Shown piece after piece: positions 27,569 through 52,800 of a DNA stretch of 59,324 nucleotides. The stretch's first letter is position 1. Each line of letters opens with the position of its first letter. The notes under the pieces are model-generated. The model was not told the origin of the DNA. It made no database searches and worked only from the letters and a program-made list of their open reading frames with translations. Source of the DNA: Psammoneis japonica (lineage: Eukaryota); the NCBI GenBank assembly GCA_008632985.1, contig QPGO01000206.1, positions 62,001 through 121,324 of the forward strand, written 5' to 3'. Position numbers and translations under genes: made by a program.

Positions 27569-27662
27569 TCTCTCTGCTCTCTACTCTCTAGTAGCTAGAG
27601 AGAGCAGAGGGCTCGACTACTAACTCTACTCTAGAGAGTAGCCCAATTGTTTCCATCGGTTC

Positions 27663-27728
27663 GTGTGTCGCCCGAAACTCCCTCCGACAAGGTCTGTGTG
27701 TCGCCCGAAACTCCCTCCGGCACGGTCC
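27663..27728. repeat. 2 x 33-bp tandem repeat
   Basis: GTGTGTCGCCCGAAACTCCCTCCG at 27663 and 27696. Confidence 0.85.
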
Positions 27729-27811
27729 GTCCCGCCCTGCCCTGGCCCTGCCGCCCACCATGAGCCCCACGACAAATCGCAAGGAGAGTTCAGCTTCAAG
27801 CTGTTGAAATA

Positions 27812-30590
27812 AAAATCACACTGGCACCAAGCTCAAAGCAGGCAAGCACTCATCAGTTGTGTGCATGCAATGGACAGAAAACCAATCAAGAGTCAATGAG
27901 TGTGCAAGCACCGCCCCAAATCCTGAGTGCCCCCCCCCGCGAAGAGGAATGGATCCTCCGCTCCACTGCCCCCAATGGCAATCGCAGTCCTGTTGGCTGA
28001 TCATTGCAATTGCATCCCAAATCCATTTTGAAAACACTCGGTGCCAATGACAGATCCCACCTCAGACCAATCTCTTTCTCATCAATCAAAGGCCACCGCC
28101 CCACCCAGCACACTGACCACAGCAATGCCAAGATGTTGACAGCAGCCGCAAAAGATGAAAAAGCCACAATCTTGCATTTTGACTCAATGACATCGTGCAT
28201 CCAAACATCACAGGTTCTTCATGGCCACTCTCCAGGCAGTGTGCCAGGCCTTGCTGATTCCAGGTTGACGAGGAATTTCCAAACGCACCCGCCGCTGCAG
28301 TGCGACCCGCGCAGTCCATGGCAACAGATCTGTCGAGTGTTTGAACACGCAGTTCAGTCATTGCATTTCCCATTTGACCCCCCTTGCTTGGACAAGGAAA
28401 ATTGCATCGGTGCACAAAAATGGCACCAATGCCTTGAACTTTGTTCGCAGCAGGGTCTTGCGATCAACTTCCGACAACTGCTCCAGAATCGCTCAAATGA
28501 ATGGCGGGGCCAGCAAACATGCGCTTGCTTTGCAACCGTCAAGTGCCTGGCCATGTTGCTTCTGTGATTTTGACTTTTGGTGGCATTCAAATGTTTCCAC
28601 ATGCCCGCCACATCCTTGGCCACGAACACATTTTCTGTGTGAAACTGCAAGCTTTTGAGTGCATCGTCCCGCGCGACAACAACGTGCTTTGTTCAATGAA
28701 AAGACCTTTTCCAGCTGCTCCCAACATGACATTGTGTCATTGCCAAATGCCAAAATGTTGCCCTTTCTGTTCAATGCTGTGCCGATCAGTTTTTAACTTG
28801 TTGCCGTGCCTGACAGTTGCTGAGCCAATTGCTCCCACGACTTGCATGCTGTGGCATTCTCAAGGGAACAGCCCACAAGCAGTCGATGCACCCAAACAAG
28901 GCCACCAGAACTGTTAAAAAAAAACAATCTTCATCTCTCTTCCACTTTCATGCCAAAGCTGCTTCTTTTCACCATCCAGCAAAGCTTTCAGAGTTGTCAA
29001 GACTTTGCTCTTGAAAAACATTCGCGGCACGTTGGAGAATTTTGCAAGACTGGCCTTGCAACTGCATTTGTTGCCTTGCACAATTCTGTCTGCCACCACT
29101 TTTCTTGTTTTCTTCACTGCAGACATGGGTGCTTTGCTTTTGACAAGGTCAATCAAAGTTTTGGTGGCCCAGTGAGAGAACTCCATGGTGACAAGAGACA
29201 ACTTCGGCAATGGATTCTGAGTTGGTTCTCAAAAACTGATTCACGGCTCTGGTTGCAAAAGACAGCGAGCCAACAATGTTGCACCACTTGGCTGCCCTGA
29301 TGGCCATGAGCACTTCATTTCAAGACTTGGACAAGTCTGTCTCTGAGTCAAATTGTTGAATGTCATGAATCCAACGCAGTCACCTCCGGAGCAGCTGGTT
29401 TTGATGCCGTGTGACAGCTGGGAGGAGAACAAAAAAGAAAACTCTGACTTTTCGTGATCTCTCCCGAAAGCAATTGTTGTGTGACAAATGTCTGGTGTGC
29501 AGCCACCAGAAAGGTCCCATTCTCCAAAATCTTGATTTTAAAGGCTCAAGCATGCCCAAACATTGCAAACATCATGGTCTTGACAGAACTTTGCATGATT
29601 TGAAAAAATTGGCGGGGTGAGATTCTTGTCAGATTTTCAACAAACAAATGAAGCGCAAACCATTTTCACTGCCAAAGATGCACAGGATCAACTGCAGCTC
29701 AGCAAAGGCTTTCTGCATGCCATGCTTCATTTTCCAACACCTTGATTGAAGGCCAAAGCTTCATCAAACATGCTGGCCATTGATGATTGTTGCGACGTTG
29801 GACGTGTCTCCAGTCCGCTCTCACCACTGTTGAAGGTCTCGGCTGAAAAATTGGAGCTGGGGGCAAACAATGCAGACATGTCTGTCACCAACAAGGTGTT
29901 CCAAGTTGAAACATGACTTCATTTGTCATTGGTGAGTGTCTCATTGGCGAAGCCAATGAGCGGCAGCAGAGTTCAGCGTGACGCATTCCAGCTCTGGGTG
30001 GGACCTCGCGCTGCTGCACTGTGACATCAACAGCTTTTTGGATCGCGTCACATGTCACACATGTGCATTTCTGCGTGCCACATTCTACAAAATTGTTTCA
30101 TGCTCCCTGTTTTGCGAAGCCAAAGGCTTTCCATTTTCAACATTTGCAAGAATGAAAATGCACTGGGCACACTCTTCAATGTCTGAAGAGTGCACCCGGG
30201 CAAACTGTCGATGATGCACTGCAAGCATGGAGGAGGAGATGCATTTGCAAATTGCCTCTTTTTCTGTTGGCAATCATTTGTGCTTTCATTGCAGCACAAA
30301 TTTGCTGTGGAGCTCGTGCGCAGAATTCTCTGCGGGCCCAATGTCACACGGAGCCCCACCTGGGGCTGGAGCCCGTCACGTGCAAGCATGTCTTTTCCGG
30401 GTTCATTTCCAGACTGCTGGGAATCGCTTCTCTGGATTTCCAGCACGACGCATTTTCCAGGTTTCCAGTGAGCCAAAGCTTCCGGGCTTCTTGGGAGACG
30501 CAGCCTCCGGGTTTCTGGGGAGACGCTGTTTCCGGGCTTTCAATGGGGCACAGCTTCTGGGTTTCCAGCACAGCCTCACTTCCAGGTTTT
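27812..30590. mobile_element. TpA-erased unclassified element between the EMC3 copies
   Basis: 4 TpA in ~2.8 kb; many Tyr-free ORFs; shares ~70 bp of homology with 36772-36841, so it is repetitive. Confidence 0.55.
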
Positions 30591-30832
30591 TAGTGGGACT
30601 TTGCTTCCGGGCATCCAGCGAGCCGTTGCTTCCTGGTTTCAGGGGTTCAGGGACACTTTGCTTCGGGTTTCTAGAGGGACTCATTCCGGGTTTCCGGTTT
30701 CCAATGCGGATTGCACTCCGGGTTTCCAGCGCCGATTCTTTTCCGGGTTTCTGACAAGAAATCCTTTCCGGGTTATTTCTGACAAGACGTCGATTCCGGG
30801 TTTCTACTTCTAGCGAGACTTCCGGGTTTCCA
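30396..30832. repeat. ~17-unit array, 25-bp period, core TCCGGGTTTC with variable linkers
   Basis: Cores at 30431, 30456, 30481, 30506, 30531, 30556, 30581, 30606, 30631 (exact 25-bp spacing), then 30662, 30685, 30717, 30742, 30767, 30795, 30821, plus 30396. Confidence 0.85.
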
Positions 30833-32831: not shown

Positions 32832-33176
32832 GTCTCCTTCACAAATTACCACAAAACTCACAGCAGACGACAAGTAAAAGCACTTCTAGCTACTTTCGGG
32901 CTTTACGCATTGACATGATGGTTTGTAGGCATCAGCGCATGCTCGATCGCTTCGTCATCGCATCGGCACTATCGGCACACCTTTTTTCTTTTTGTCGACG
33001 CGACGACGCCGACGTCACCACCGCGTCAGCAAAACGCAAAAGTCCATCCGTCGATCGTATGAGTATCGTAACCAACAACTGTCGCGTTGACACAACATGC
33101 AACCTCCAAACCCGCCATCACAAGCATCGAGCATCGCCCATGGCAAAATTCAAGTGCCGCCAGAAGAAAATACCGG

Positions 33177-35174
33177 ATGCCCATAGATATGTTTTCACGT
33201 TGCTTTGCTACGACACTATGGTTGGTGCTTCCAATGATAACAAGGGTTAATTCTTTCTTTGGTGTTGTGCGTCAGCGCAGTTCTCCCTCTGCTTTGTTGC
33301 CGTTCCCTCCGACGAAAAGTGCAAAGAGAGGCTTTTTGTCGGTCGTTAGCCATGACAGCGAGGTTTCCGACGATGGAGGGGAAAATGCTATTTTTGAAAG
33401 AAACCTCCCTCTGATTCAATCATTTCGTCAGGTATCTCGTTCTATTGAAACGCATCACAACAACTCGTCGACGGTGCAGAAGCGGCTTGTACGAAAAGGG
33501 CTAGAGTATGACTTGTATCGGCGTTCTAAACGGTTCCAGGAAGAGGATATTATCACATCGTCATTTGATCGCGTTCCAGGGTGCGTTGCAACTGTGCACA
33601 TCCAAACTACTCTGGTTCCAATTGGAAACACAGAGAATACCAATGATGCCACTAGATACAGGGTTTGGTTGAACGGTACTTCAGATGCCATGTTGAGTCG
33701 AGGACTTTTGGCATGTTTTTCTGAGGCCGTGTCGGGACTGGACGTTTCCGCAAACGATGTGCTGCAGTTGGAACCGGGATTGGTTTCCAACCAACTTCAT
33801 TTGGATCATGTGCTAAGTCGAGGACGGAATGATGGTCTTGCTAGTATGATGCGCACGGTGCAGCAACAAATTCGAGCCCTTCTGCGTCACAATGATGAGC
33901 AAACTAAAGTCAATTCCACTGACGTAATATCAACTGCAAGCATTGGCAGTCAAAACGCTTCTAACCAAAAGACCGTAGCTATGTTGCTATCGGGTGGTGT
34001 CGACTCTTCCGTAGCGCTCAATCTGCTCAAACGAGATGGATTTAACGTAACTGCATTTTATCTCAAGATTTGGTTGGAAGATGAATTGGCGCACTTAGGT
34101 CAATGTCCGTGGGAAGATGACTATAACATATGCAAACAAGTGTGTCAACAAGCTGGTGTGCCTCTAGAAACCATCTCGCTACAAGAAGAGTACAAGTGCC
34201 GTGTGATTAGCTATACCGTAAATGAAGCAAAACGTGGGAGGACGCCGAATCCGGATATTATGTGCAATTCCCGTGTTAAGTTTGGCTGTTTCTACGATGC
34301 CATTGAGGCAAGAAACTTTGACTACGTAGCATCGGGCCACTATGCGCAACTTGTGTCAGACGACGAGGGAAACAAACCGATTCGGCGCCTATTTCGTGCA
34401 CCGGACCCAATAAAGGATCAGAGCTACTTCTTGTGCGCTCTGACGCAAAAGCAGTTGCAACGTGTCTTGTTTCCGATTGGGCATTTGCAGAAATCTCAAG
34501 TCCGAGAGCTAGCGCAAACCCTAGCCTTGCCAAATCGGCAAAGACCAGACTCTCAAGGCCTTTGCTTCTTAGGCAAGGTCAAGTTCGATGAATTCCTTGC
34601 AGCATACTTGGGNNNNNNNNNNNNNNNNNNNNNNNNNNNNNNNNNNNNNNNNNNNNNNNNNNNNNNNNNNNNNNNNNNNNNNNNNNNNNNNNNNNNNNNN
34701 NNNNNNNNNNNNNNNNNNNNNNNNNNNNNNNNNNNNNNNNNNNNNNNNNNNNNNNNNNNNNNNNNNNNNNNNNNNNNNNNNNNNNNNNNNNNNNNNNNNN
34801 NNNNNNNNNNNNNNNNNNNNNNNNNNNNNNNNNNNNNNNNNNNNNNNNNNNNNNNNNNNNNNNNNNNNNNNNNNNNNNNNNNNNNGTACTTTCAACGACG
34901 AACAACAGCGAACACCGGAACTGTTTTGGTAGGTAGATTCCATTTTAAGATACGACATGGTCCAAAATTGGTAGAGGGGACTCTTACATTGGATAAGAAT
35001 GAAAACGGCGGTGGTGTTCAACTAGATGAAAAAGACGGGGGCCTCGCTCCTGGCCAGTTTGTCGTATTTTACGCCTTAAATGGCAGTGAATGTTTGGGTG
35101 GTGGTGTTATTAGTGAACGGCACTGGACAAAGTTCCTCTTGGACCAAGACTCTGTCCATGAAAGCTTTTCGTGA
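33177..35174 (+). CDS. mnmA: SufE-like domain fused to tRNA 2-thiouridylase MnmA, predicted plastid-targeted; spans an N gap
   Basis: SufE motifs RVPGCVATV, SDAMLSRGL, LSRGRNDGL; MnmA motifs LSGGVDSS, TPNPDIMCN, SGHYA, KDQSYFL, DSQGLCFLG, APGQFVVFY; signal peptide ending VNS-FF. Confidence 0.9.
   Translation: MPIDMFSRCFATTLWLVLPMITRVNSFFGVVRQRSSPSALLPFPPTKSAKRGFLSVVSHDSEVSDDGGENAIFERNLPLIQSFRQVSRSIETHHNNSSTVQKRLVRKGLEYDLYRRSKRFQEEDIITSSFDRVPGCVATVHIQTTLVPIGNTENTNDATRYRVWLNGTSDAMLSRGLLACFSEAVSGLDVSANDVLQLEPGLVSNQLHLDHVLSRGRNDGLASMMRTVQQQIRALLRHNDEQTKVNSTDVISTASIGSQNASNQKTVAMLLSGGVDSSVALNLLKRDGFNVTAFYLKIWLEDELAHLGQCPWEDDYNICKQVCQQAGVPLETISLQEEYKCRVISYTVNEAKRGRTPNPDIMCNSRVKFGCFYDAIEARNFDYVASGHYAQLVSDDEGNKPIRRLFRAPDPIKDQSYFLCALTQKQLQRVLFPIGHLQKSQVRELAQTLALPNRQRPDSQGLCFLGKVKFDEFLAAYLXXXXXXXXXXXXXXXXXXXXXXXXXXXXXXXXXXXXXXXXXXXXXXXXXXXXXXXXXXXXXXXXXXXXXXXXXXXXXXXXXXXXXXXXXXXXYFQRRTTANTGTVLVGRFHFKIRHGPKLVEGTLTLDKNENGGGVQLDEKDGGLAPGQFVVFYALNGSECLGGGVISERHWTKFLLDQDSVHESFS
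34613..34885. other. Assembly gap (273 N)
   Basis: Run of N. Confidence 0.99.
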
Positions 35175-36166: not shown

Positions 36167-37399
36167 GACTGCAATGTTGGCGTCACAAGTTCACTCAAGA
36201 ATGCAGCTAAGGTGTCGTGTCAACATGAACTGATGTTGTCACACCACACGGAGCGATCGCTTGTACCTTATACAGTATCTTGCTTCCCGCTTTCATCACA
36301 TTGATTGATGTCTTGACTTCTTGACACGTGGTGCGGATTGGATTGTGTGAAAGATACTTCAACCCGATGACGTGCAGACTGCCTGTGTGCCTGCATGGCG
36401 GGCTGCCATGCATGAAAACATGACCCACTGCGTACGACGCGAAATGACCCACACTGACCGTGCGTTGGGTCACCTTTCTTCTGAGCCGTTGAACATTTTG
36501 AACGCGCTCATGCAAGACTAAGAGCCACGGCCGTTTGCTTGCCCCATTGCTCTCCTCATTCCTCCAAAGAGCAACCAAGAGCAACAGCCACAAGCGGGCA
36601 GTTTTGGTGCTCCCACCTCTGCCGCCCTCTGGCCCTGCCGCTCCAGCTTGGGTTTGGGAGCGAGGCCTGCACACCCGCCAGCAAAGTCGCTCCAGTCTGA
36701 CAGTGGAGCCATGGCATCTCTCTGGTTTAAATGTTCCCAAAATTTCATCAAACAAAGCGTCTGGGGTTTTTGCAAAACAGCGAGTCTGGAACAATTTTTT
36801 GGAAGATCACATGCAGAAATCCACGTGCAAAACATGTGACGGATGACAAAAAAAGATTGTGCTGCACATCAGCACCACAAGCTCCCACCTGGGGCTGGAG
36901 TGAATCTGTCATTTGCAGCCAGCAGCCACTTGACTCTTCCACTGCACTGACAAAGCATCCAAAATGTGTGCAAAGCAGCACACCTGCACAAAGCAGCATC
37001 AGCAAGAGCTCAGAGTGGCGCTGACAAAGTGCCAGAGTTGGTGACAACAGCCAAGCCCCCAGGGCCAGCAGCCCCCTGTTTAAAAGAGGAAAAGTGTGAG
37101 CAACAACAAGCAGGCAAGCCAGGGGAAGCAGGGAGAGAAAAAGGTTTGGGCAGGAAGAAGAAAAACAAAACGAGAGACAGAGAGAAGAGAGAGCAGCTCT
37201 CTCTGGGGCGGCACCTGGGAAAAGTGTGCGGCAGCAAGAGTGACAAGCTCAAAAGCTCCCTGCAAACCAGTGACAGCAGGTGACATGTGCGCCAGTGAGA
37301 AAGAGTGAGCAAAGATCTCAGAGAGATCATCTTGTCCATCTAAAAAGAGCCTGACCATCATCCACACACAATCTGCCCATGCACCCTGTGCAGCAGAGC

Positions 37400-38900
37400 A
37401 GGCTGACAACCTCCCCTGATCCAACATGTTGAGAAACCTGATGATGCAGATCACAAATCACAAAGAAAGGGAAAACAATCTCATGCAAAGGGATGCAAAA
37501 CAAACCGGATGACTCTGGTGGGAAGGAGTCGGACATCACAAAATCACAAAAGGCAGCTCAACAGATGCCAGCAACAACAAATCAGCAAAAGTGCCCCATC
37601 ATTTGATGGGCATGACGGACATGGAGTGTCAATCTGAGAGCCTTGGTGAGGCCATTGCTTGGATTGACAATGCCAGGGATGTGTCGTGTGACAATGTGGC
37701 CGGCATCCTTTTCCAGCCCTGAAGAGCAAGCCACTGGACATCAATGTGGCGAGAGCGCTCGGTCGGGGTGCAATTGTTGATGATCATGATGGCCAATTTG
37801 TCGTCAATGTGCAATGGATTGGTGAGTCCTGAGGGGGGAACTGAGCTCTTGAAGAACTGAGTGGAGACACAAAACCAACTTGGCAGTGGCGCCGGCAGCA
37901 TGGAATTCCGCCTCCATTGAGCTGGCGCAGTCACTGTCTGTCTGTGTCTTGCATTGACATGCAACAGCACCAGCCAAAACACAAGCATGCCCAGTGGTCA
38001 AGTGATGGTTGCATGTCCAGTGGTCAAGTGATGGTTGTGAAGGTCATTTCCACAAGCTGCACCCAAAAAAGCCTGCAGTTGAGACAGAGAATCCGGAGTC
38101 AGAAAAGGAGGCAATGAAGCACATCAGGAAAAAATCATTCAAAAGGGTGCGGCAGCAAGGTGTCATCCTTGGATGGCTTGTGACAATTGATGTCCCAGCA
38201 CTTTGCATGACAAGATGCTTGGCAACAACCCCCTTTAAAGCCTGGCAGTGAACAGGTGCTGGGTGTGACGCGAACTTGGAGAGTGTGGTGACAGCATGGC
38301 CAATGTTGAGGCGAGAAATGACACAGGCACACAGCAGCTCCCCAAGGAGAGTTCAATGTCCAAAACCCTGAGCTTCTGCCAAATCCTGACACTTGGGTGC
38401 ACCTTCCACAGGACCTGTGTCCAAGTGCAAGGTGCCAATTGGGAAAGAGAGTCAACGGGAACAGGGGCAACCATGAAATCTGAGTCAGATTCATCATCAG
38501 CAGGTTGCAACCAACCATGCAATCGCAGCACTTGGTCAATGCATCAATGACAAGCAGCTGACACTGAGTCATTGCACTGGCATGTGCCCACACCGTTGAA
38601 CACTGCACAGAGCCCAAACACTTTTAAGGAGACAGAATCCTCACCAGGTGGTTGCAGTGATGAGCCAATTGCATCGAAAGTCTTGAAAGCATGCGGGATC
38701 CCACAGGGCACACAATGGCAAAATCATCAACCTGGCGCAAAAGGAGGATCTGTTTGCCATCGCATGTGCCCAAGCAGGTGCACTTGTCATGGGCGGTGTT
38801 CCAAAAAAGCAACTTGAGATTCATCAAGATGGGGTTGAGATCTGCCTCTCACTTCTTCTCTGCTGGTGCTCGTGTTGTCACAGCCCCAGTGCTTGGGGAG
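37400..38900 (-). mobile_element. Ty1/copia (CoDi-like) pol relic: RT and RNase H, PPT and start of 3' LTR
   Basis: LLRQVDDFAI (RT), LLGELL..IGHAVTTLSKF, SSMEAEF and TERSRHIDVQW (RNase H); minus-strand purine tract AGGGGAGG followed by TGTCAG at 37408. Confidence 0.85.
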
Positions 38901-39499
38901 TCTTTCATGACATCATCCTCATTGCCCTTCGGTGTTCTGTCAGGTTGTGGCCTTGTGCTGTGCCACTGAACTCTGCACCATGCTTTCTGTTTCGATTCAT
39001 TTGTTTTGTGAGCTGATCAAGCAAGCCTCATCTTTGTTCCTGAAACAAATTTTTTTCTTGCTTTCCTGGCATTTTTCACGATCATAGAAACATGCCAGAT
39101 TTCTGTGTGTGCATGACCAGAAATGTTTTCACCAGGCAAAACCATGGTGTCTCCCAACCTTGCAAAGGCTGCTCCCACATTTGTTGCAGGGATCCACTGT
39201 GAATTCTGAGCACATGTGATGACACCACATCTCCACGCGTGCAGCTGCTTGACCCAAGAAGAACATTGTGGACTTGCTCCAAGACTGTCTTGTCACTCAA
39301 GCATTTCCACCTTGCATGATGGATCCTGCAGACATGCAATCCATCAAAGCGATTGTAGATCAAGGAAGCTCCATTTTACGTTGTGGACCCTGACAGGCCT
39401 CATGTGATTCATTTGACACCAGAAGCTCTGTCATCCACGATCAAGCTGAACCTTCAGAATCATGATCAGTCGTTGTTCATTGTCACATCCACGCAACAC

Positions 39500-40900
39500 A
39501 TTCATGCTGATCCTGATGTGATGTGGAATTGCAGGGGCTGGAAAGAGTTTTCTCTTGCTCCCTGCCAGCAGAAGACACTGTCTGCACCCTCGTCCTGACT
39601 GGCACAGGAGCTGCAACTGTTGGTGTGAATGATTTAGCAGCAGCCCTCAATGAGTTTGCATGGAGCCATGCTCCACCTTCAGCTGCTGCTGTCAAAACAT
39701 CAGGAGGTGCCACATCATCCATGACATCGAAGCACCTCTTCAACCCCATCACTCTGCCCATGGATGTGCGTGAATGCTGTGACCATGAGGAACACAGTGC
39801 AGTTGCTCTGAAGAGTTCACTCGTCTCTCATTGTGACCATGGATTCCATCATCACATTGATGCCTCAGACCATGTCATTCTCAATGATGGCATGCACTTT
39901 GTCATGAGCTCCACCCCCAATCAAAAGATGTTGTTTGGGGAACCACCAATGTGTCATGACAACTCTCCTGCTGGGATGCGGGCGTGGCATCAAAATTTCC
40001 AACGTCACTCTTTCGACTCTGGGGATGCTGCATCCATCCCATGTGGTGTTTCACCAAGGATCATGGTGGTGAGAAGGGCTTCATGATCGGAAATGTCAAA
40101 GACGATGACTCACTCTGATGCATGTGTGTTCATTGCAAAGAAGCCCAGAGTTCTCTCCACAAGATTCCATCCAAAGCAGATGTGTTTCCCAAGAACAGCA
40201 GGCATCATTGCATTGTCGCCTTGTGCTGTGGCAATGGACACAAGGCCCTCAAGCAGATTCCACACAAGAGTCATCCAGCATTTGACCATGAAGCAGCTGG
40301 ATCAGTGGATTTGCACCCTGCTCAAGGCAACCCATCATTGACGGACTGCCACATTGTTTTCAAAGATTTCCACAGTTGCGTGCTCACATCTTTGATGTGC
40401 ACTCCACGTTGAATGATCCACGAGAGATGACTGTCTTCATCAAGAACACCAAACACTCCAAGTTCTTGTCCCATGCCATGAGGGATGAACAGAAGTCCCT
40501 GGCTGTGCTCAAGAAATGCATCGACACTCAGATTGTTGAAACCCTGTCTGACTTCCTTCATCAACCTGACAGTCCTTTGGTCACCACCCATGCGAGCCCT
40601 CGCACCTCACACCATGAATGGGGCCAGAATCAGGGAGCAAGACCCTCAATGCACAGCTTTTGATGTCAATGCTTTGTCATCCTGGACGTGCCTCCTGTTG
40701 AGGATGATTCTGATGGGGCACCCAATGATGCAGATGATTCACTGGATGACACCTTTGACACCCTTTGTGACGAATTAGCTGGCATGGATGTGCCACCTGT
40801 GGATGAGGATCGCCTCCTCCATCATGCACACTCGGCTTCTGCACACAGAAAGAATGGCACGTTGGTTGCCAGTTGGACTCATCACATTGTGGAGGAGATC
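39500..40900 (+). mobile_element. Copia gag-like relic, opposite orientation to the pol fragment
   Basis: Fragments MRAWHQNFQRHS, IHPMWCFTKDHGGEKGF and GNGHKALKQI..SHPAF resemble diatom copia Gag; broken by frameshifts. Confidence 0.55.
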
Positions 40901-40958
40901 GGCTGCTGTCTGCTGTGTGTCCCGCTTGCATTCTCTGTCGCCCGTCTGTGTGTCTCAA

Positions 40959-41695
40959 CTGCAGAGCGGGTTTGAAAGCCACCGCAGTCGTCAAGGGCAG
41001 TGGAGCATCTTCCAAGGTCACGAAATCCTTTTGCGTTGCCTCAACTCTGGCGGAATCCATCGTGAATGCGACGGAAGTGCCCACTCTTGGGGTCATGGAT
41101 CCATTTTCTGACTTTTGTGGTTGGACAAACACGGTTTCTGTTGTTTGGGTGCACACCGGACAGTGGAGTGTGTTGGCCACACCAACAACAGGAGGGCGAA
41201 GGCACCAACTTTCACACTGTGGTAATTTCTCTGTCAGTCTGCCAGAGGAGGGCAGGGATTTCATGATGATTCACAATGGCACTGCCATGGAGATCAAAAA
41301 GCAACACAAGACATCTGCACCAAGGCATCCAGGGGCGAGAAACGGAAAGAGAAACACGAGACTGCTCCTGCGTCTTCCGAGAGTGCCAAAAAAATGAAGG
41401 AAGAAATCCAAGGAATCATCTGCCAAGCACCAAGGCACTTGCATCATCCCCGTCTCATTGCACCAAGATGAGCAGCCCCAAGAAGGACAAGAGCGGAAAG
41501 ACTCCCGTGTGCACGCCGAGATCGTTCCATCCCAATCTTCCGGCCATTTCCAAAGAGAGGATCAAGAAGGGAAAAAAGACAAAAGACACCAGAACAAACA
41601 AACATGCCCAAGACAGAAAGGCACATTGACATGGCACAGCAAACATTTCTGCACATTGTTTCATCAAAAGCTGTTGGATGATTGTCGGTTGCCAT
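40959..41695 (-). pseudogene. Host-like multi-pass membrane gene relic, TpA-erased
   Basis: MATDNHPTAFDETM..MCLSVLGMFVCSGVFCLFSLL..SLSALVLLGAAHLG..WQMIPWISSFIF..LVFLFPFLAPG; 2 TGA stops, one frameshift, no Tyr. Confidence 0.4.
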
Positions 41696-43581
41696 CGTGC
41701 ACTTCGTGGCAGGGCAGTGGGATTCTTTCTTCGCTCTTTCGAAAGCATCACACAAGCTAGAAATGCTGCTCTCTCTGCTGCAGCTCTCTAGAAAGTCTTT
41801 TGAGCTACAGTGCTGTAGGGTGTCACCAAGCACAACAAGTTAATCCTTCGGCGTGCTAGGCCCACAGCACCGGCAGCTGTGATGATGGACTCGCACTCTA
41901 TGCAATCCATCCATGCATCAGACACCCTGACACAAGCACACGCAGATTTATTTGATTCTTCATCCCGCTGCTTTGGTCCCAATCCAATTAGGCGTGGCAG
42001 GCGCGCTCCTGATGAGCGTACAGACTATCACCGCGGTGCTATCGCGGGGAATTTGATCAAATCTCGCACCGACGATGGTGATGATTGCGACGCTAAGAAA
42101 GTTATCTAAACCTTCGATTCTGCGAGAACGTATTTGGCATATAATCAATTAGCATCTGTTGGATAGGTATCTAAATACGTTCTTCACGATTTTGATTTTG
42201 TGGCGAGCTATTGATAAACATACCGATTCAGTCGTTCGTGACGCCATGTCACGTGCCGAGTCTTCATCAACCACTCATTCGCCGGATTTTCGACACCCGC
42301 TGAGAGTAAAAGCCGGCGGATATATAAAGGCAAGTAATATAGAATCGAAATGGTGTTGTCATTGTGCCAAAGTCTCACTACTTGTTGTCTCACTCAACTG
42401 TCATGCAGACGCAGCCAATTTTCACAGTGTCAATCGTCGTGTGAGCTCATCGACGAATCCAATGTCGTAGTCCCGTCGTCAAACCCGTTTTAGCAACGCC
42501 AATGACAAGAGGAATATTTTTCAAGACTTTAATAAAGCAACTGCAATGCGATCAGCCAGTGTTTTTGAGTGGGAGAGGGTGGGGCGTGGGGCGGATTTTG
42601 GAGTGAAAATGCAGAGTGAAGTTGGCGTACTGTTTAAAAGAAGCAGTCAAACAACGTTGAAAAAGTTACCTATTGATGATACTCTCCTATAGAAGAATAA
42701 AGTTAGGTAATGGAAGTGCCCCCTTGCTTGTATATTCGCTAGATTGTTGGCAGAGACGCAATTGTCAATTCTGAAAATGGAAAAGTGTGGCTTGTAAATG
42801 TGTTTTCATGGATTGCTTCGTCCATTTAAAGCATGAAATAGGTCAAATAGAGTTGTCACAACGTCAATAATGAATTTTAAAGAAGACTATTGCCATAAAA
42901 TGTGCTTTGTGTTGATGTCATCGGCTATCTGTATCTCTTTGTCGAGAAAGGGTTCATCGACCCCGAGTCACGTGTCTTGAATCCCGCATGACCCGCTCGA
43001 CTCGAAATTTTTTGAAGAACTAGCTAGACTTTGACCCCGGCTAGAGCCACAAAATACCCGAGGTATGAGCATTATCGGTCTCCTACTCTTTAAACTAATG
43101 TCTTGCGAGAATGTAACAGGTATGTATTGTTCATGGTGTTGGGTATTTGGAAATGGAACTAACTTTTCGCGGGGCGCCTTTATTGCACGTGAAAGTACGA
43201 GGGACGATTTTTGGTGATATCTCTATTACTAACCAAACCTAACACTTGCGACCCCAAAACTTGTCGGGAACTTCTTATTAGAATAATATTAGTCGGCTGG
43301 AGTTGCATTTTGGTAAAAAATGGGGGGTTTGTGATTACACGTGGAAGCATGACGTTGGGCCCCATAGCTGCTGATGCGGTAACGTTGAAAGTCTCCAAAA
43401 TCAAGTCTCCGACAACCGGCAACTGCTCCCAATGGCGTTGTCACTTTGTCACCATTGCTCTCTCGGTTTGCGTTCCGTCGCTCTTTAAAGGGCCTCCCAC
43501 GCTTTCTTTGAGTTATTTCAGCGTTTTTCGTTTTTTGGTTAACTAAAGTAGCGTCCTTCACGCTCACGCTCTTGTTGTAAC

Positions 43582-45390
43582 ATGCGCTCGACAAACAACA
43601 ACCTAGACGAAACACTAAACACTGGCACCCCTGTATTGAACGATGCTTATGAGATAAATGTGCTTGTCATGAGCAAAGCTGGGAAGCTAATATTCAGTCG
43701 ATTCGGGGTTGAAGATGACGTCGTCAAGAGCTGCGCAATGATCGCTGCGATACGAAGCTCGCTGGTGGACAACAACATGTTTGGATTAGGCGATCTAGAC
43801 ACGATGAGATCAGAAGAGCTGACGATTGCTTTTATGTCGGTTGGATCTATAACACTTATTGCAACATCTCCGAGGAGTGCAGATAGTGAATATCAATCTG
43901 AAGCTTATTTGCGCCTTTTATTGGAATACATGTACTGCCGCATGCTTTTCACATTGACGGAGCAAGTGCAAACCGTTCTCGAAGATAATCCTGGTTTTGA
44001 TCTTGGTAACTTGCTTGGTTCTACTGAGAGTGACATTCTTGGGATCTTGGATGAGACTGGACAGTTCGGAAAATGGTCTCTCATCTTCACTGGCGGTGTG
44101 GAGATCATCTTTCCAATACAATCTCAAGTTCGCGAAGAGGCCTCAAGGGCTCTGTACACTGTTGGTAAAGCGACAGCCAACACCGTATTCGCTCTTCTTC
44201 TTGTGGATGACAAGCTTCTCACCATAGTACAGCCACACTATCGACCCCACCAAATGCGATCCTCGGACTTACATCTCATTGTCAACTTTATGAAGCACCA
44301 ACCCGGTATCTTGACAAGTGAGTTGTGGGTTCCAATGTGCCTTCCTCGATTCAACTCGAAGGGATTCCTCTACGCGTACTCCACTTGTTTAAATGACAAA
44401 CTGACTTTAATCCTTTTGAGTCAACAAAGTACGACAGATCAGTTCAAACTCTTTCAAAGAGCAGCAGAAAGCATTCGGCAAGAGCTGGGTCTCCCTTCGA
44501 TACCTGGGTCAGTTCTACGTATTGTCGGAAATGAGGACTTGAATGGCCAAGGAAATGATGTCACAGGAGATGATGTTGCTTGGAGGCGCAGCGAGATAGG
44601 CATGGATGAGCACACTTCAGAAGAAGACTATGTTAATGTGTCGGTTGAAGCTGGACCGCAATCTATGATCGCTGCGGAAGATGATCATGTCTTCCCGTTT
44701 CTCGAGGAATTGGAGAAGGCGTCCAAGACCAGCTTTCGTGAAGAGTTGCTGGAAGATTTCTGTACCATCTCCTCGGCAATTCATTTCTGCTTTCGAATTG
44801 ACGTGCCAGTACAAAATGGCGACCACAAGTCGCGACGAAAACACACCGCGACCGCAGGATCCTTGAGTCAGGTCATAAACTCACCCCTGGATTTTCCCTT
44901 TGTAACACCTTTGTCCAAACGGCACGTTTGCAACATGTATCAGAAATTGAATCTGCGGCTACGCCTTGGAGCGTCGACTGCGGAGACCACAATGGAAGCA
45001 CTTGACGCCACGATACATCATCAGACCACTATTGACAAGAGAACTGACAGCAGATCTATCGTTGATGTACATTGTCCTGGCATTTGTATGGCTGAATCTT
45101 TCCCGGATGTTGATGGGATAGCATATATAAAAGATGGCGGGGAGCTGTTTATCGGCTTAAGTGGGGACAGCTTTGAGTTGTAAGTAGTGCGGGTTGATTA
45201 TTTGGTATTTTCGCTGGCCCATTTGAGTTTTTCACTGTGTTCTTCGATCCTTGCCAATGAAACCTATAGGTACATGGCATTACCAAGTACGATCCCGCCA
45301 CACGATGCTACTGCCTTAGGTGGAAAACTAATCAGAACCATCCGAGCGAAAGAGAATGATCTATTTCTTGTTGAGCCCCTTACCTGGTAG
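43582..45390 (+). CDS. MON1: Vacuolar fusion protein Mon1, 2 exons: 43582-45179, 45270-45390
   Basis: SKAGKLIFSRFG, SDLHLIVN, WVPMCLPRFNSKGFLYAY; in-frame intron 45180-45269. Confidence 0.9.
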
Positions 45391-45791
45391 ACATGAGACG
45401 TTAAGTGAGCAGAAGGTACTACTCTGCGGACGACGGGGACACGTTACTCGTCGACTGGACTGACCCGATCAATCGAGAGGGCGAAGGAAACAGCTGGTTT
45501 CGGGTGTTGAGCCAACTTGGGTGGCCACTGCCGTGTTCTTACAATAATCTTGAAGCTATTGATTGCTGTTGGCGTTCGGTACCTGGACCTCCGTGAAACT
45601 TTCGACTGTAGCTGCATAACCCATCGAGGACAAGGAGGCAACAGCAACTGTCACGAATGGTGGCATCATACTGGGGAGCCAGCACGCCGAAGACATCGTG
45701 ACGCTACGTGTACAACATACTATGAACAGCCGGTGTGGCCACTTCGAAGAATCAATTTGTTCTGTCTAAGTACAGTATTTATATTTCTGTT

Positions 45792-45853
45792 CGCTTCGAC
45801 GGCTGCATTTATACTGGATTAACGCTTCGGCGGCTGCATTTATACTGGATTAA
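45792..45853. repeat. 2 x 31-bp tandem repeat
   Basis: CGCTTCG(A/G)CGGCTGCATTTATACTGGATTAA twice. Confidence 0.9.
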
Positions 45854-45899
45854 CTGGAAATTGTGTAGCAGCTTTCAATGGTTGTCTCGAGGGTGTAAA

Positions 45900-48093
45900 C
45901 TATAAATCGTTTTGGCAACATGGAGTAATCCCTTCGGGTACACTGGAGTAAGATACGCGGGAGTCAGATGGTTTGGGCGCGCTCTTTCTATTCTGTTCAA
46001 GCTCTTCGGATGAGGTGTCCCGGTCTTCCAATTGAATTCTTGCTGACTTTCGGATTTCCGGCTTGTCATTGCTCTGCCAGAACAAAGCATCCCTAGCATT
46101 GAACATTACGTGCCCCGCTACGAGACCAAACACAGCGCTCAAGAACAATGGACCGGAATACGTCATGACTGCCAACTGCGCAATGACCGGCAGAGAAAGA
46201 CGGCGAAGCAATAATCAATGTGACAAGAGTATCAAAAGATAGAATCCATCTCTCTTCTCCCTCAGTATAACGCGGAAAACTCACCATGACAAAGTACCCC
46301 ATTGTCAACTGAATTCCATAAACAACGCCAGACGCTGCCAATCTGCGGTAACCTGGCTTCATGTGGGATATAAAGGCACGCCGTTGTCTGATCACCATTT
46401 CAAGCAGAATTCCAAACAAAAGAAGGCCCACACAGGCGGCAGCCAATCGCCCTGGCGAAGTCAGTGTCCATGCTTCAAACAACAAGATCACGCAAGTCGT
46501 ATCAAGCCAATGAAAACCATCCATGTACATACTTGTTCCTCCGTAGCAGAACTGCTCTTGCTTTTGTGGCACTTCCATAGAGAGTTCCGCGGCACTTACA
46601 CCAGGTGCTGTCGGTTGCCAACTACCAAGACAGTTGCTGTTATGGATGAAGCCATTTTCGCAAGGTCCCGTAGCCGCGCTCACCCGATTACCTGATGCTG
46701 CCAGGACAGCAGGATCCAGACAGTACAGTGAGTACCCCTCGGTGATGTAACCGACAGCCTGTTTGTGATTGGGGATATCGAGACACTGCATCCAACAAAA
46801 GAAGTTGGTAGAGTTGTTGCACGCTGAGGGGTCCTGTACGTGTTGCAAGCGCCTTCTTGTATTGCTGCTCGCGACCTTCGTTAAGATGTGATCCCTGTTT
46901 GCATCACCTTCATTACCACAACCAAGAAAGATGGCTTCTTCTTGGTCATCGCCGATGCGCGAAAAGGATTGCTTCATATCAGCGAAGGTTCCGTGTCGAC
47001 TAACCACCGCACTCTCCGGGACCAAGTGCACTGTTGTATCAATCAATTGTAGAGAGAGTGAAACCGAGCAAAGTGTCAATAAATATGAGGAACACAAAGT
47101 CAGCGCCTTGCGTGAAAATCATGTTCGTTTTGGAGGGCGCCGCAACTTACTCATTCCGTACCACGCGCGAGATGACCCTGACTGCATCTTGACGGCGTGC
47201 CTGGTAGCCTGCAACCTGACATCATGTCGAGCAGGGCTTAACCACTGCTCAGCACCTAGTCCCAGCATGATGATGATGCTGTTCATTGGAAATGAAACGG
47301 GTAATCTCTGCTCTGATATTGGGTCCAGCAAGAAGAATGAAGAGTCCAAGTCCCCTCCAGCGCACGAGTGGGCGGGCACGAAACTCAAAAACAAGCCGGC
47401 ATCGGTGTGCATCTGAAGGGTGTCATCGTTTACGCCAGTATCATCATCAAGATTGACGCCATCACGATTGCCGTCCCTGTGATATATATGAAAGTGCTCG
47501 AGATGCGTCGAGCTACGAACAATGTCCTCAACAGAGTGGTATTGTACGCCATGCTTTGTGCGCAGCAGAGGTGCGCTTGCTCCTGCAGGGCCTCCCAGTA
47601 TGCGATCCAGAGCTTGAATGAACGCTGAAGAAGCAAAAGCTGCCTGATCTCTCATCGATTCCATGGCTTTGACAGTCGCTTCTCCACATGCCTCTGATAC
47701 AAGTGTCTCGTCTTCCGCTATAGAGAGAGGATTATCACCGACAGTCGCCGTTGCAAGCGTAGTGCGTCTTGTAGTGTCATCCATTAGCGTAGAAGCGGAA
47801 ATGGATTTGTGTTCATCAGAGAGTGATTCCAGAAGACTTGAACACTGACAAAGCCCCTGCAGCGCAGTCTCCCTGACGAGTTCTTTGTCCTCCCCCAAAT
47901 TAACCGCTAGAAGACCGGTTGAAGACAGGACGGAGACAAGCTCCTTGCTTCGACTTCCCGATTGCAAATCCGCAACGCTGAAGGATGGAGGAACGAAATC
48001 ATTTGCAGCTGCAGCAAGTGTGGACTGCGCCAGACCGAACCCAATCCAAACCAGCACGGTCACAACAGCGCTTCGTGAATTCGTCTTCGTCAT
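45900..48093 (-). CDS. 2OG-Fe(II) oxygenase-like domain + Cys-rich linker + Ctr copper transporter; 3 exons: 48093-47151, 47030-46285, 46175-45900
   Basis: Signal peptide; HTD...H...R (MHTDAGLF, ATRHAV, RAWYG); Ctr motifs SMYMDGF, MLAVM (MxxxM), GLVAG; spliced length 1965 nt, in frame. Confidence 0.85.
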
Positions 48094-48296
48094 CTTCTCA
48101 TTCAACTCCACCTCCACCGCACTCTGCGTCTCTTTTCGACCGCTCTGTGCAGGATTCGACCATTACAGTAGAAAATATATTGGGTCGTACATACACGTGT
48201 TTCAGTACATTTTGGCCGTAAGGTAATCATCAGCGGAATTGTAGAGCTCATGACTTAATTGACAATCTGGTGCAGTGCTGCAGCTTTTCCAAGTTA

Positions 48297-49800
48297 TCAC
48301 AATGTTGTCCATCTCAACCATGGCTGGAGTCATCCTGAAGGTCATTCTTGCTCTTTGTTTTTGGCAATGCAGAGCAAAGCTGAGAACTGCCGCTCAAAAA
48401 ATCAAGATGACAGAGTGCGGGTGAGATGGCCCTTTCTCATTCAAAATTTGGGCGCACGCCATGACTCTGTTGCGCAAGCTGTGAGCGTTCAAACAGCTTG
48501 CAACAGTCCTTGCTCTCATTGTTGTGGCACCAGTGGTGCACACCAAAAGAGCTCTCCACACATGTGACCATTGCGGGGTGCAACAAGGCAGAGCCAACCA
48601 CAATCAATTGTGGTGCCCAGTGCGCAGTGGAGAGCATCGCTTCTGATGCTTGTTTGGCATCTGCTGCATGTGGAGGTGAAGAGCTCCACCAGTCACATCC
48701 CAAGAGCTTTTGCAATGGATGCACAAGGTGTCCAGCTGCACTGACCAAGGCTGTTGCTGTTGCTTCAAGATGCAGACTCAGTTTGTGCCCCTCTGGGCAG
48801 TGTGATGACATCACCTTGTCTGTTGGTTGTTGTCACAAGAGAAAGAGCATGACATCGGCAACTCTTTGTCACCCCAGCCATCCAGCAGTTCCTCTCAGCC
48901 ATCTCTTCTTGTTTTGCACCATTGTTGTTGTTGACATGTTCACACTCAAACCAAATGGCTGTGCTGTTTGAAGAAATGCAGAGATGGCCACACAAGCAAT
49001 GCCAAGGTTAGAAAGAAATGTTGACATTTGTGTGGGGGTTAATTTCAAAAATTTGAGGGACTGTGCTGCATTGCTGCTTTGCAGTCGAATTGTCAACAGC
49101 TCGATTGTCCTCATAGCCCCTGTCTTCAATTTTGTCCTGGTCTGCAGCCTTGAGAGCAACTTGTTGTGATCTTCTTCATCAGGAATGTTGTTGTTGCTGC
49201 TGATGGTGGACTGCACACCACTTGGAAATTCTAGGTTGATGATGCCAGCATCGTCAACCCTGCCAAATGACAACCTGCTGCTTTTGGGTAACACAGCTCA
49301 TTTGCACATGTTGGTGCAATTTTGAGCCACTCAATGCTGGCAGCAGCAATGACAACAACAGCAGCAGCAGTGGCAACAACAGCACTCTCGGCATTTTGCA
49401 AGTGAACACCAACACACATGCACACACTCCATGCATGAAAACATGGTGCAGTTGACAAGCCACTCCAAACCAAACACAAACAAACAAAACCATTGAGAAT
49501 TTGACAGAAATGCTGTGGAGAACACACCCTTGTGATGCATGAGCATCCAGGACACCAACCAAATGCACTGCAGTTAACATTCGAGCAGTGGTGTGGGGCG
49601 CATCATGCTGGCACCACAGCAAAGTCGAGCGAGCAGCGACACCACAGAATCAAATTCGCATGTTGCATTGATGACAGCACATTTATGATTCAGTGCCCTC
49701 AAGCAAACATGACGTTTTTGTTTAACAATGCGATTTGTTCAAAAATGATTGGCGGCAAATCCAGGGCAAAGCTGTCAATGCGAATGACCTGGGTTCCAAA
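48297..49800. other. TpA-depleted island with host-gene-like remnants on the minus strand
   Basis: ~8 TpA in 1.5 kb; Tyr-free ORF fragments (e.g. MLSTAHWAPQLIVVGSALL). Confidence 0.55.
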
Positions 49801-49890
49801 CCTCCTCACTACATGTCCAGAGTTCCTGCCACAAGGAGCCAACGCCAAATTTAAATTTCTTCTTTTATCTACCTTCAGGAGCTACACCAG

Positions 49891-52800
49891 CTAGTGGCAC
49901 AGGGACATTCCTTCATTTCTTGCATAAGATGACGCACTAGCAACACCCCAGAACCATCGTCGAAAACTGGCGTCCACAGATGCATCGTAAAAGCGAAATT
50001 TGTCTCGAAGCGTTTGTAGCTCACGAGGATCAAGAGACGCAAGTGACGGAAAATGAACGAGTTGCTGTTCCGGAGGGTCTGCATGAGACGGTGCTAAACG
50101 CGTCGTGAAGCGCCTACACATGGACTCACCCTCCTTCAAAAGATGAAGTTGCGGCATGGGAAACCTGTTGTGTGACCGATCTTGTAGGAACTGCAAACAC
50201 TGCTTTCGAATCTCGTCGTATTCCGGTCCAAGCGTAGCACGACCCGACCATAAAAACAAACTGTCGTGTTGGTCTGCCGCAATAACGCACTGATATCCAT
50301 GCCGAAATGAAGAGCCAAAAAACTGTTCAGATTGGAATTCCAAACATAGAATTAAATGACGTCAGCTACATACCGTGTCCCAAAGCGCCAGGGTATCTGA
50401 TGGAATTGGTTCAAGTAACACCTCGTTTGATGAACTCCACAGTGATGGTGCCATCATGCAAAGACAATCGTCCAGCGGAAGGCGAAGGAACAAGCTGCGT
50501 GTTTCAGCACGGTCATCCATGGACTGAAGTGGGCCAGGATTAAGCAGAGCACCGCGACGTAAATGGAACAGCCGATGCAAAGCATCGGCCAGCTCCGGAG
50601 GGAAAGCAAAATCAAGCGACGATTGAGACGCGGCCATTCCACCCTCTTCTGTCAGCTCGCCACTATTGCTGATGCACAAAAGGAGAGAGGAGTGAAGATA
50701 AGGTACCCATAGCTAGACTCGTTGCCACCAAGATGTCATTCAGCCCCCTTCTTGACGTACCTCCTAGTTCCTTCTTGCAATCCGAGGAGTCGAAAAGCAC
50801 CAGATATTCTATGAATTGTTGCATCCAAGTCTCTTTGCGCCTCGTTGGCCAGTACTTCCAACCTATCCGTATCAAACGCAACGTCGGCAATTTCTTGTGG
50901 GTCTTCTCTTCCCACAATTGCCCTGTATACCGCTTCCTTTCCGAGAATGACAGGAACTACTTCTTCGTCCATGTCATCGAGAAAGTCGTAGACACTTCGG
51001 GCTACTGATAGTCTATTTGTACACACCCTTGTTACGATGGTTTTTCCATCGGGTTCCACGTAACGAACAATGCACTGAAAGAATGCGTGTTTCTCGCTGG
51101 GATGAAAACTATCATTCACCCGCAACATTGTTGAGAGCGTGGAAAGGGGATCGTAGCGACCCATGCTCAATCGAGTCAACGAAGCAGCAAGCATGTCCAA
51201 GGAAGGGAGATTGTTGGTACGAAATCCACGATTTGCTGCCAAACACGCTCCGAGCGAAAAGGACGAACGCTCGTTTGCAAGCAATCCGTGCTCTCCGTAC
51301 AAAACCTGTGCATTTCCCACAACGTGGGTCGGTGAAACAAAACTAGACGTACAAGAGAGCCATGAGTCACCGGTCGCACAACACGGTATTGACTTTTCAT
51401 TGCGCGTAAGATTCATAATTTGAACATACCTAGACATGCGAAAGTCCACGATACATCCATTCATTTGATTCATGATCGTGGCTGGTTGGCTCTCCATGTC
51501 TAGAGCTTCAGTTCGCGAAATGTGCGTACGTGACAAAGAGTGCTCAAGATTTTTTGCCAAATGTGGCGTCTTGAAGGATTCATGGGGTAAAGCGTAACCC
51601 CCGCTCGGCTCCACAAGAGCTTGGTAGGTCGGCATGCCAAGCGACTCGGCACCTGGAGAGGAACAAATAAATCGTTTTGTAAGATGTATTGACTCACAAT
51701 TTATTGACGAATAAAGTAGACTGTTCTTTACTCACCCGTACAGAAGACATCAATGCCGATTCCATATTCACAGGCATCCTTGGCGAGATTACCAAAGTAT
51801 CGAGTTGCTTTTGAAACGTAGTATGGATCAACAACGTGGGGCTGCGTCATACGAAAAGAAGCATGGACACCAACAGCGTTGGTGGAATCATCGTCCAATG
51901 ATAGGTCTCTAGGCGGCTTGACTACACTGGCCCTCCCAATACTAGGGCAACCATTGGTAAAAAGAAGTATGCGGCATGTTCTCGGCGTCACTGATGATCC
52001 ACATTCCGCCATGTCGATAGCACATTGAATGGCTTCTCCTGTACAACGAACACTGCGGTACTCGTTTCTTTTTTTGACCCACGGAGATTCTTTTAGTGCC
52101 GGAGTAACTTCAGGAGTGCATCCATTTCGTTCTCTGCTCTGTTTTCGAAGCCGTGCTTCTTTTCGCAATCGCAATTGCTCCTTTCTTGACAGCGGCGCTT
52201 TTGTTTGCAAAGACAGATCTGATGGGTTGACGACTTGAGGATTGAGCGGCAATCCATACACGGCGGATAAACATTGCCAAAGAGGATTTAAGTCTGCTTC
52301 TGAATTGATATCGATCAGGTAGGACTGACCTGCCATGCGCGTTCGTCGCTTTGTGTGCTCTTCATCTTCCTTCTCGAAATCCGCTTGGTAGAGAGTGTAC
52401 ACGTCCGCCGCGCACATTCCCAGGAGGCCTAACTGATACATGGACACGGCGTTGCTGAACACAATCAAACCAAGACTGACTTTCTTTCCTGTACCATTTG
52501 CCTTCCGAAAGAATGACTGCATGGACGTCGCGACCGCATGTGCTTCATCACGAGCCAAGTTTCCGTCCAGAACAAGGATGTAGCAACTTGAGTTATTCAC
52601 GGTCGGCGTCGATGCCTCTGTACCACCAGCAGCAACAACATGTTGTCGATATTCCACAATAGGTGACACCATAATGGGTGCTAAGGCTGACGAGGAGTCT
52701 GTGAAAATTTCTTTCGGCGCCACGTTTGTTTCTCCGCAAAGGGGGCACTGCCACTCGCCACTTTCAGAATCGAAGGATGCGTACGGGTTCAAGTATGCCA

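Follow-up and report, generated by a model that had tools for sequence, protein, structure and literature searches.

Why does a copia-type retrotransposon in the genome of the diatom Psammoneis japonica carry His or Cys at positions where its relatives carry Tyr? The element lies in the stretch analysed here, referred to as the window, which comprises 59,324 nucleotides (GenBank assembly GCA_008632985.1, contig QPGO01000206.1, positions 62,001 to 121,324 of the forward strand; all coordinates below are those of the window). A sequence-only reading had noticed these replacements in the reverse-transcriptase (RT) domain and had taken the Tyr codon as the thing that changed, through a process acting on both strands of DNA with decay of CpG superimposed. 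Its view of the mechanism proved largely right and too narrow: the unit lost is the TpA dinucleotide, in every reading frame and in non-coding parts, throughout a 5.2-kb element and three further islands of the window, and the loss of Tyr is a by-product. It is likely that silenced mobile DNA has been hypermutated in situ, at the DNA level and with TpA as the target, ordinary CpG decay having come on top.

Former tyrosine codons of a decayed copia element

The element and its recognisable parts are the following.

36520-41757, minus strand: decayed Ty1/copia-type element (island C), nearly without TpA, delimited by dinucleotide counts
38044-38848, minus strand: RT region in three shifted frames, containing the RQVDD motif native to the family, found by tblastn of the relative P0003 and of 150 relatives
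38212-38367, minus strand: segment of the RT domain with five well-supported former Tyr codons and a weak one
37588-38010, minus strand: RNase H region, frameshifted, found by tblastn of P0003
40900-41162, minus strand: stretch matched weakly, and in colinear order, by the N-terminal portion of the integrase of at least eight relatives, each with E 0.03-0.09

Relatives were gathered with a read-through frame as the query and then with P0003, the best full-length match, 150 of them being kept. P0003 is a protein of 1147 amino acids that carries RVT_2, with PF07727, PF13976 and PF25597 as precomputed Pfam matches, and in tblastn against the window it matched 37588-38848 on the minus strand (E 1e-26 and 9e-15). 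The 221 high-scoring segment pairs (HSPs) obtained from the relatives were confined to 37.5-39 kb of the same strand. The source of P0003 is labelled a bacterial metagenome-assembled genome (Flammeovirgaceae), in which a eukaryotic copia polyprotein is most likely a binning contaminant. By tblastn, the element has an RVT_2-type RT followed by RNase H, as in copia, and the integrase matches, suggestive only, would place the integrase upstream of the RT, which is the copia order.

The translation of 38212-38367 on which the sequence-only reading had relied was reproduced exactly, and tblastn was used to align as many as 62 relatives from the RVT_2 copia lineage at the six sites where Tyr had been expected. 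Tyr is found in 57 of 62 relatives at 38358 (CAT in the element), in 46 of 62 at 38331 (TGT), in 39 of 62 at 38325 (TGT), in 35 of 62 at 38298 (CAT) and in 42 of 61 at 38247 (TGC), and His or Cys is native at each of these five sites in only 0-3 relatives. The sixth site, 38217 (CAT), is weak, with Tyr in 19 of 51 relatives, Leu in 19 and His in 8, leaving five of the six replacements solid. Two other codons of the segment fit the proposed CpG decay: the stop codon TGA at 38355 (38353-38355), formerly CGA, stands in a column that is Arg in 61 of 62 relatives, and the AAC at 38307 (38305-38307), formerly GAC and preceded by C, stands in one that is Asp in 61 of 62.

To define conserved Tyr columns across the RT-RNase H region, at least 60% Tyr and n of at least 15 were required; two of the 12 such columns come from off-frame HSPs. 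None of the 12 has kept Tyr in the element, compared with 141 of 196 other conserved columns that are kept (Fisher p = 6e-7, or 6e-6 without the two off-frame columns), indicating that the direction of change was indeed from the Tyr codons TAY to CAY or TGY. At a looser threshold, the 16 majority-Tyr columns read Cys in six cases, His in four, Phe in four, Ser in one, Leu in one and Tyr in none. Conserved Arg is kept in 5 of 15 columns of the region, the others reading His (6), Cys, Gln, stop and Met. In RNase H, former Tyr codons now read TGT at 37869 and CAC at 37811, and a former Arg codon at 37863 reads CAC. Among the examples drawn earlier from this domain, the His of PLHIDD (Tyr in 21 of 36 relatives) is a fair one and the Cys of LCLHSVL (Tyr in 44 of 50) a good one, whereas the His of LCLHSVL has replaced Arg (47 of 50) and that of EAEFH stands in a variable column (Ile in 14, Tyr in 10, Val in 9 and Leu in 8 of 51).

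The codons TAA and TAG are nearly absent from the element, and its frames are broken almost solely by TGA, since TAA and TAG need TpA. Pfam searches with its 21 stop-to-stop open reading frames (ORFs) gave nothing except a sub-threshold match to SAM_3. Neither long terminal repeats (LTRs) nor a target-site duplication were found: no direct repeats of at least 30 nt flank the element, and a local alignment of its two ends, collapsed to purines and pyrimidines, gave a score of 45, the highest score among shuffled sequences being 43. The LTRs are either lost or decayed past detection. No RNA dataset was listed as carrying the element's sequence.

Loss of TpA in four sharp-edged islands

Over the whole window there are 1950 TpA, or one in every ~30 bp, with TpA-free gaps of up to 1141 bp, and their number per kilobase drops from ~30-60 to 1-4 between 37 and 41 kb, in island C. 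Three further islands show the same loss.

8170-9165: island A, without recognisable coding content; TA 3 against 40 expected, CG 14 against 58
27640-30590: island B, with a DUF285 frame; TA 5 against 117 expected, CG 96 against 171
48296-49574: island D, single-copy by contig depth; TA 5 against 51 expected, CG 14 against 74

Expected counts were taken from the rest of the window. On this basis island C has 11 TA against 208 (Poisson p 3e-73) and 111 CG against 303, together with 613 CA against 381 and 520 TG against 383, so that its deficit of TA and CG (389) and its excess of CA and TG (369) are equal within error; the corresponding deficits and excesses are 80 and 69 in island A, 187 and 170 in island B, and 106 and 128 in island D. 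The spectrum of change in the window is A:T to G:C at TpA, giving TpG or CpA on either strand, although not purely so, the conversion of CpG to TpG or CpA being superimposed. Both strands are involved, as had been proposed, given that CA and TG are balanced in islands A, B and D and stand at 613 and 520 in island C. Observed/expected ratios in the islands are 0.01-0.06 for TA, 1.7-1.87 for CA+TG and 0.25-0.56 for CpG, against 0.4-0.9 for TA in the flanks. All four islands are sharp-edged and lie amid genes normal in TpA, so that the change is confined to discrete regions, and the losses of TpA and CpG coincide in each of them. Together they make up ~10.5 kb of the 59.3-kb window (~18%). Gene conversion, including GC-biased conversion, was rejected as an explanation because the change is specific to TpA, and selection against UpA in RNA because it is far too weak for the difference between flanks and islands.

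The islands are unrelated to one another, their sole blastn similarity being 137 bp at 71% between islands B and C (29984-30118 and 36769-36902, on opposite strands). They comprise one copia element, one DUF285 relic and two sequences without identity, and foreign origin is shown for one only. A minus-strand frame of island B matches DUF285 (BspA-like LRR) with E 3.9e-7 and has a sub-threshold match to YrhK as well; island B would thus be a decayed gene relic, with no recognisable transposon, that bears the same TpA erasure. Islands A and D have no identifiable content, Pfam searches with the read-through frames of islands A, C and D gave no match, and retroelement features are absent from A, B and D. 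At the right edge of island B a unit of ~90 bp is present twice (30431-30520 and 30556-30645), the copies being 125 bp apart and 75% identical.

Immediately beside the element, at 41980-43300, there is a high-copy repeat (summed contig depth ~1000-2700, against ~60 for a single copy) in which both TpA (observed/expected 0.66-0.74) and CpG (1.1-1.24) are normal, which indicates that repetition alone is not the trigger. It contains no long ORF, and none of its sequence matches the copia relatives.

The same signature in related copia copies

Metagenome contigs were scanned with an alignment of intact relatives, yielding 80 loci. Most are ordinary, with a Tyr fraction of 3.4-4.4% and Tyr at all conserved columns, and the whole-locus median of TA observed/expected is 0.64. 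Seven loci deviate (L057/L058, L080, L073, L039 and L048/L049): Tyr remains at only 1-3 of their 10-11 conserved Tyr columns, compared with 158-201 columns kept among 174-216 other conserved ones (Fisher p between 1e-6 and 4e-10), and they differ from one another in the choice between His and Cys at the same column. Five of these seven loci were aligned at the DNA level, each to a less-affected partner. In these pairs TA had become CA or TG 516 times (CA 249, TG 267) against 53 changes in reverse, while CG to CA or TG was symmetric (266 against 262 in reverse), and the rate of A to G per site was 0.425 after T and 0.055-0.083 after A, C or G. No strand-coordinated runs were seen in the pairs, TG and CA outcomes being randomly interspersed, which argues against a processive single-strand mechanism; a processive single-strand deaminase was dropped from the candidates for this reason. 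Across the 80 loci, TA observed/expected falls as CA+TG rises (rho -0.45, p 3e-5), and the losses of TpA and CpG are uncorrelated (rho 0.16, p 0.16).

Beside L049 lies a gene whose named homologues all come from diatoms, and hence at least one other diatom shows the process. L049 also retains a long open frame (567 amino acids) despite its loss of Tyr; long frames are kept in the TpA-depleted copies because the change of TA to CA or TG never makes an in-frame stop. A search in eight TpA-depleted metagenome loci found no LTRs. In the near-identical pairs L057/L058, L048/L049 and L053/L077 the differences are too few to be informative. Each of these TpA-depleted copies turns up again, at 99.5-99.96% identity, in another metagenome assembly, and their diatom hosts are evidently common in those microbial-mat samples.

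The related copies bear on the idea that no dedicated system exists and that silenced or methylated heterochromatin slowly accumulates changes through context-dependent spontaneous mutation or repair bias, which would assume that TpA to CpA or TpG occurs at ~10 times, and CpG change at ~3 times, the rate of other changes. The age of the window element, apparent from its having kept only 141 of 196 conserved non-Tyr columns and from its several frameshifts, would suit this idea, as would the joint loss of TpA and CpG in all four islands. In the metagenome copies, however, 70-90% of conserved Tyr is gone and ~90% of the remaining conserved columns are intact, without any asymmetry at CpG, and the high-copy repeat adjoining the element is untouched. 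Moreover, according to a preprint on the alga Bigelowiella natans, the same signature arises there in bursts and in some lines only (10.64898/2026.01.13.699255). Slow bias is in our view an unlikely explanation.

Sequence context of surviving TpA

The four islands retain 24 TpA between them, of which 11 are in TTAA, 16 in YTAR and none in RTAY. The 11 TTAA compare with 15.4 expected, a density near background, whereas all other TpA in the islands amount to 13 against ~400 expected, ~97% being gone; TTAA is essentially immune to the change in this genome. In no other context is the 3' neighbour A whichever strand is read, and the sparing of TTAA agrees with the metagenome pairs, in which the rates by 3' neighbour were 0.37 for C, 0.31 for T, 0.20 for G and 0.18 for A (TAC>TAT>TAG>TAA). 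Even so, TTAA was mutated in 13 of 20 cases in those pairs, the least mutated contexts being CTAA/TTAG and CTAG (~0.30). One common context rule was rejected because the sparing of TTAA in the window is not reproduced in the metagenome pairs; either the rule is only partly shared or it differs between species.

Same-locus contigs point to change in place

A public DNA run of 2019, here called X1, contains 80% of the element's sampled words. X1 may be the sample from which the window itself was assembled, so that it guards against gross artefact and is not a fully independent replicate. Its same-locus contigs are single-copy, with a depth of ~58-64 (64 for the 2024-bp piece in island C, ~58-61 for the flanks), and differ from the window as follows.

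36870-38893 (2024 bp): 8 other letters
40145-40775 (631 bp): 3 other letters
40747-42010 (1264 bp): 6 other letters
43342-50500 (7159 bp, spanning island D): 5 other letters, 3 of them in island D and 2 in the ~5.9 kb of flank
flank of 1597 bp: 3 other letters

Set side by side, the counts of the islands and of the flanks give no more than a hint of a locally raised rate of new mutation. The stretches 36597-36869 and 38894-40144 of island C have no near-identical piece in X1. Many further contigs of the run cover 36.5-43.3 kb at 80-95% likeness, so that the element is a member of a multi-copy family.

The minus-strand codon 38541-38543 encodes Cys in the window (TGC), and in the X1 contig from the same locus it encodes His (CAC), which corresponds on the plus strand to CA against TG at 38542-38543. 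Tyr occupies this column in 65 of 67 relatives and throughout a 12-sequence alignment (A1). An ancestral TAC with two independent single hits requires the fewest steps, and this TpA was probably hit independently in place. A second double difference of CA against TG is found at 49022-49023 in island D, and of nine single-contig positions listed as differing within the islands, eight are steps between TA or CG and CA or TG, the numbers being small. Judged from these contigs, the differences point to a process that would have acted on DNA already inserted, in both lineages or haplotypes.

These contigs also bear on whether the element's letters are native or misread, that is, whether the family simply uses His and Cys and avoids TpA or the assembly has misread modified bases. 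A few relatives do have His or Cys at the columns in question, but they are TpA-depleted themselves and discordant in their choice at the same column, leaving intact the earlier reading, which intact relatives with native His or Cys would contradict. In addition, the element's frames are broken, most covering paralogue contigs of X1 read T (TA) at 37277 and 40405 where the window reads CA, and the run of 2019 gives the near-identical contigs listed above. A native composition or an assembly artefact is thus extremely improbable.

Editing before integration, by an ADAR-like enzyme on RNA or by a deaminase on single-stranded complementary DNA (cDNA) that was then inserted, can be weighed against the same contigs. 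The element is a retroelement, and the change of A to G with a 5' U or T is the neighbour preference of ADARs as cited in the preprint (10.64898/2026.01.13.699255). On the other side, the strands are hit almost equally and without strand runs, island D is single-copy, islands A, B and D lack retroelement features, and one former Tyr codon now specifies Cys in the window but His in X1. The strand bias shared by descendants that ADAR or APOBEC action before integration predicts was not found, given the balanced strands, the lack of runs and the discordant alleles at that codon, and this candidate is highly improbable. ADARs count as metazoan enzymes, and no member of the family is known outside animals. 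The earlier preference for a DNA-level process over single-strand RNA editing is supported by the involvement of both strands and by the discordant Cys and His alleles.

Proposed explanation

Starting from the observed dinucleotide bookkeeping, direction of change, hits on both strands, sharp limits, near-saturation and recurrence in relatives that include another diatom, we propose the following course of events. A copia-type retrotransposon, now dead, lies in a diatom chromosome, and the change would have come after its insertion. At each palindromic TpA step one A:T pair would become G:C, giving CpA or TpG, and either strand would be struck independently, site by site, nearly to saturation. 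The Tyr codons TAY would in this way become His (CAY) or Cys (TGY), the stops TAA and TAG would vanish and TGA stops would stay. Decay of CpG to TpG or CpA would be overlaid on this, as expected of methylated silenced DNA, and would yield His, Cys or stop from Arg; we take this loss of CpG to be ordinary and distinct from the change at TpA. The three unrelated intergenic relics of the window would have been given the same treatment, and targeting may follow silenced or foreign chromatin.

We infer that the change serves targeted defence of the genome, of the kind measured in B. natans. Its chemistry may be adenine deamination in T-A context by a deaminase acting on DNA, which we hold to be a real possibility short of a probability, and which is put forward because it has been proposed so for B. 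natans. Adenosine deaminases of the tRNA type prefer adenine in a T-A-C setting. The same targeted process could also use another chemistry, in which the T of TpA is modified (as hydroxymethyl-uracil or in the manner of base J) and then misread or misrepaired as C. Its end products at a palindromic step would be identical, and thymine hypermodification in some protists prefers TpA, but the data do not discriminate, the order TAC>TAT>TAG>TAA being readable on either base; we regard this version as very unlikely.

Several points weigh against the proposed explanation. The terms targeted and hypermutation rest on end-state composition and on a few differences between the window and X1, and the argument for change in place depends on two double differences; an ancestral CpG could yield the same pair of CA and TG, although the Tyr codon would then need more steps. 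If X1 is the assembly sample, the contrast is between haplotypes, not strains. No LTRs were found in the window element, and hence there is no LTR pair whose comparison could separate change in place from change before integration. The untouched repeat at ~41.98-43.3 kb shows that some repeats escape the treatment. Agreement on context is only partial, TTAA being spared in the window and mutated in the metagenome pairs. Finally, the link to methylation is unproven, since TpA and CpG losses are uncorrelated across the 80 loci and the pairs show no CpG asymmetry.

More broadly, and tentatively, diatoms and possibly the wider group of stramenopiles, alveolates and Rhizaria (SAR) might have a heritable defence that edits duplex DNA in place at TpA, on a random strand, sparing TTAA and approaching saturation, which would erase Tyr without making new in-frame stops and would offer a candidate natural DNA adenine editor. 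A saturated footprint in a diatom chromosome, together with that in the metagenome copia copies of another diatom, suggests that the process is widespread in a leading group of ocean primary producers, and given the share of the window taken up by islands (~18%), a considerable fraction of the repeat DNA of diatoms may bear its mark. Transposon annotation that relies on homology would miss such elements, Pfam having found nothing in the decayed frames here. The sparing of TTAA and the strand-independent, site-by-site pattern constrain any candidate enzyme. Diatoms are a group with established genetic tools, and the enzyme, potentially a natural DNA adenine editor, would be experimentally approachable in them.

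Genes around the islands

The genes around the islands are compact eukaryotic genes, and a DEAD-box helicase among them has named homologues in pennate diatoms only (60-71% identity), as befits a diatom host. An Hsp90-family gene is present as two plus-strand ORFs, 820-2157 and 2373-3236 (profile positions 80-222 and 266-503), with an intron or a break between them. The plus-strand ORF 33072-35174, whose translation resembles tRNA 2-thiouridylase by eye only, contains 273 N at 34613-34885, a scaffolding gap inside the gene.

Comparison with known systems

Methylation-driven decay of CpG accounts for the CpG deficit of the islands and for the replacement of Arg by His, Cys, Gln or stop, but it cannot remove TpA, and the related copies lose TpA without CpG asymmetry. 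The hyper-editing of repeat-derived double-stranded RNA by ADAR shares the change of A to G with a preference for 5' U or T; it differs in acting on RNA, in being heritable only after reverse transcription and in the one-strand bias to be expected in a retroelement. Like APOBEC3, the process is a deaminase-style, context-dependent hypermutation that kills the coding capacity of a retroelement. Unlike it, the change is A:T to G:C, strand-balanced and probably made in place, whereas APOBEC3 converts C to U on minus-strand cDNA and leaves a strand-biased G to A pattern before integration.

Repeat-induced point mutation (RIP) of ascomycete fungi likewise inactivates repeated or selfish DNA where it lies, through dense transitions that depend on sequence context, fall on both strands and stop at sharp borders. 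RIP, however, changes CpA to TpA, raising TpA and lowering GC, whereas here TpA is destroyed and CpA and TpG are enriched, and RIP needs duplication, whereas island D is single-copy and the high-copy repeat adjoining the element is untouched. RIP was rejected as an explanation because the composition of the islands is the opposite of the one that it produces.

The closest counterpart is the only previous report of TpA-specific A:T to G:C hypermutation, a 2026 preprint on one rhizarian alga, the chlorarachniophyte B. natans. In its mutation-accumulation lines, 231 of 302 new mutations fell within two integrated viral regions; changes of A to G or T to C at TpA made up every one of those in the virophage region and 210 of the 211 in the giant-virus insert (10.64898/2026.01.13.699255). 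The same source describes 124 clusters poor in TpA and rich in CpA+TpG, an enrichment of RT and DDE domains among TpA-poor genes, and an ADAT2-like protein named as a candidate without a test; diatoms, CpG and context beyond TpA are not mentioned in its main text (10.64898/2026.01.13.699255). Full-text searches of the literature, with passages or term counts from PMC2806351, PMC4504042, PMC6604790 and PMC8147415, turned up no account of TpA depletion or of hypermutation in a diatom, within a scope that covers neither subscription journals nor supplements.

The two cases differ in several respects. The host here is a diatom, a stramenopile; the target is a copia relic with small single-copy relics instead of a 186-kb giant-virus insert; TA observed/expected is 0.05, near saturation, as against a rho of 0.45 in B. 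natans; and CpG decay is superimposed and TTAA spared, which the main text of the preprint does not describe. Rates were measured there in real time, whereas the process is read here from end-state sequence. The likeness lies in a change at TpA only, to TpG or CpA according to strand and from AT to GC against the usual bias, in its limitation to foreign or selfish DNA with sharp borders, and in the RT-enriched trace poor in TpA and rich in CpA+TpG. The feature is a very recently described kind of genome editing, found here in a new phylum-level lineage, and its near-saturation, the sparing of TTAA, the strand-independent hits and the discordant allele pair are new details.

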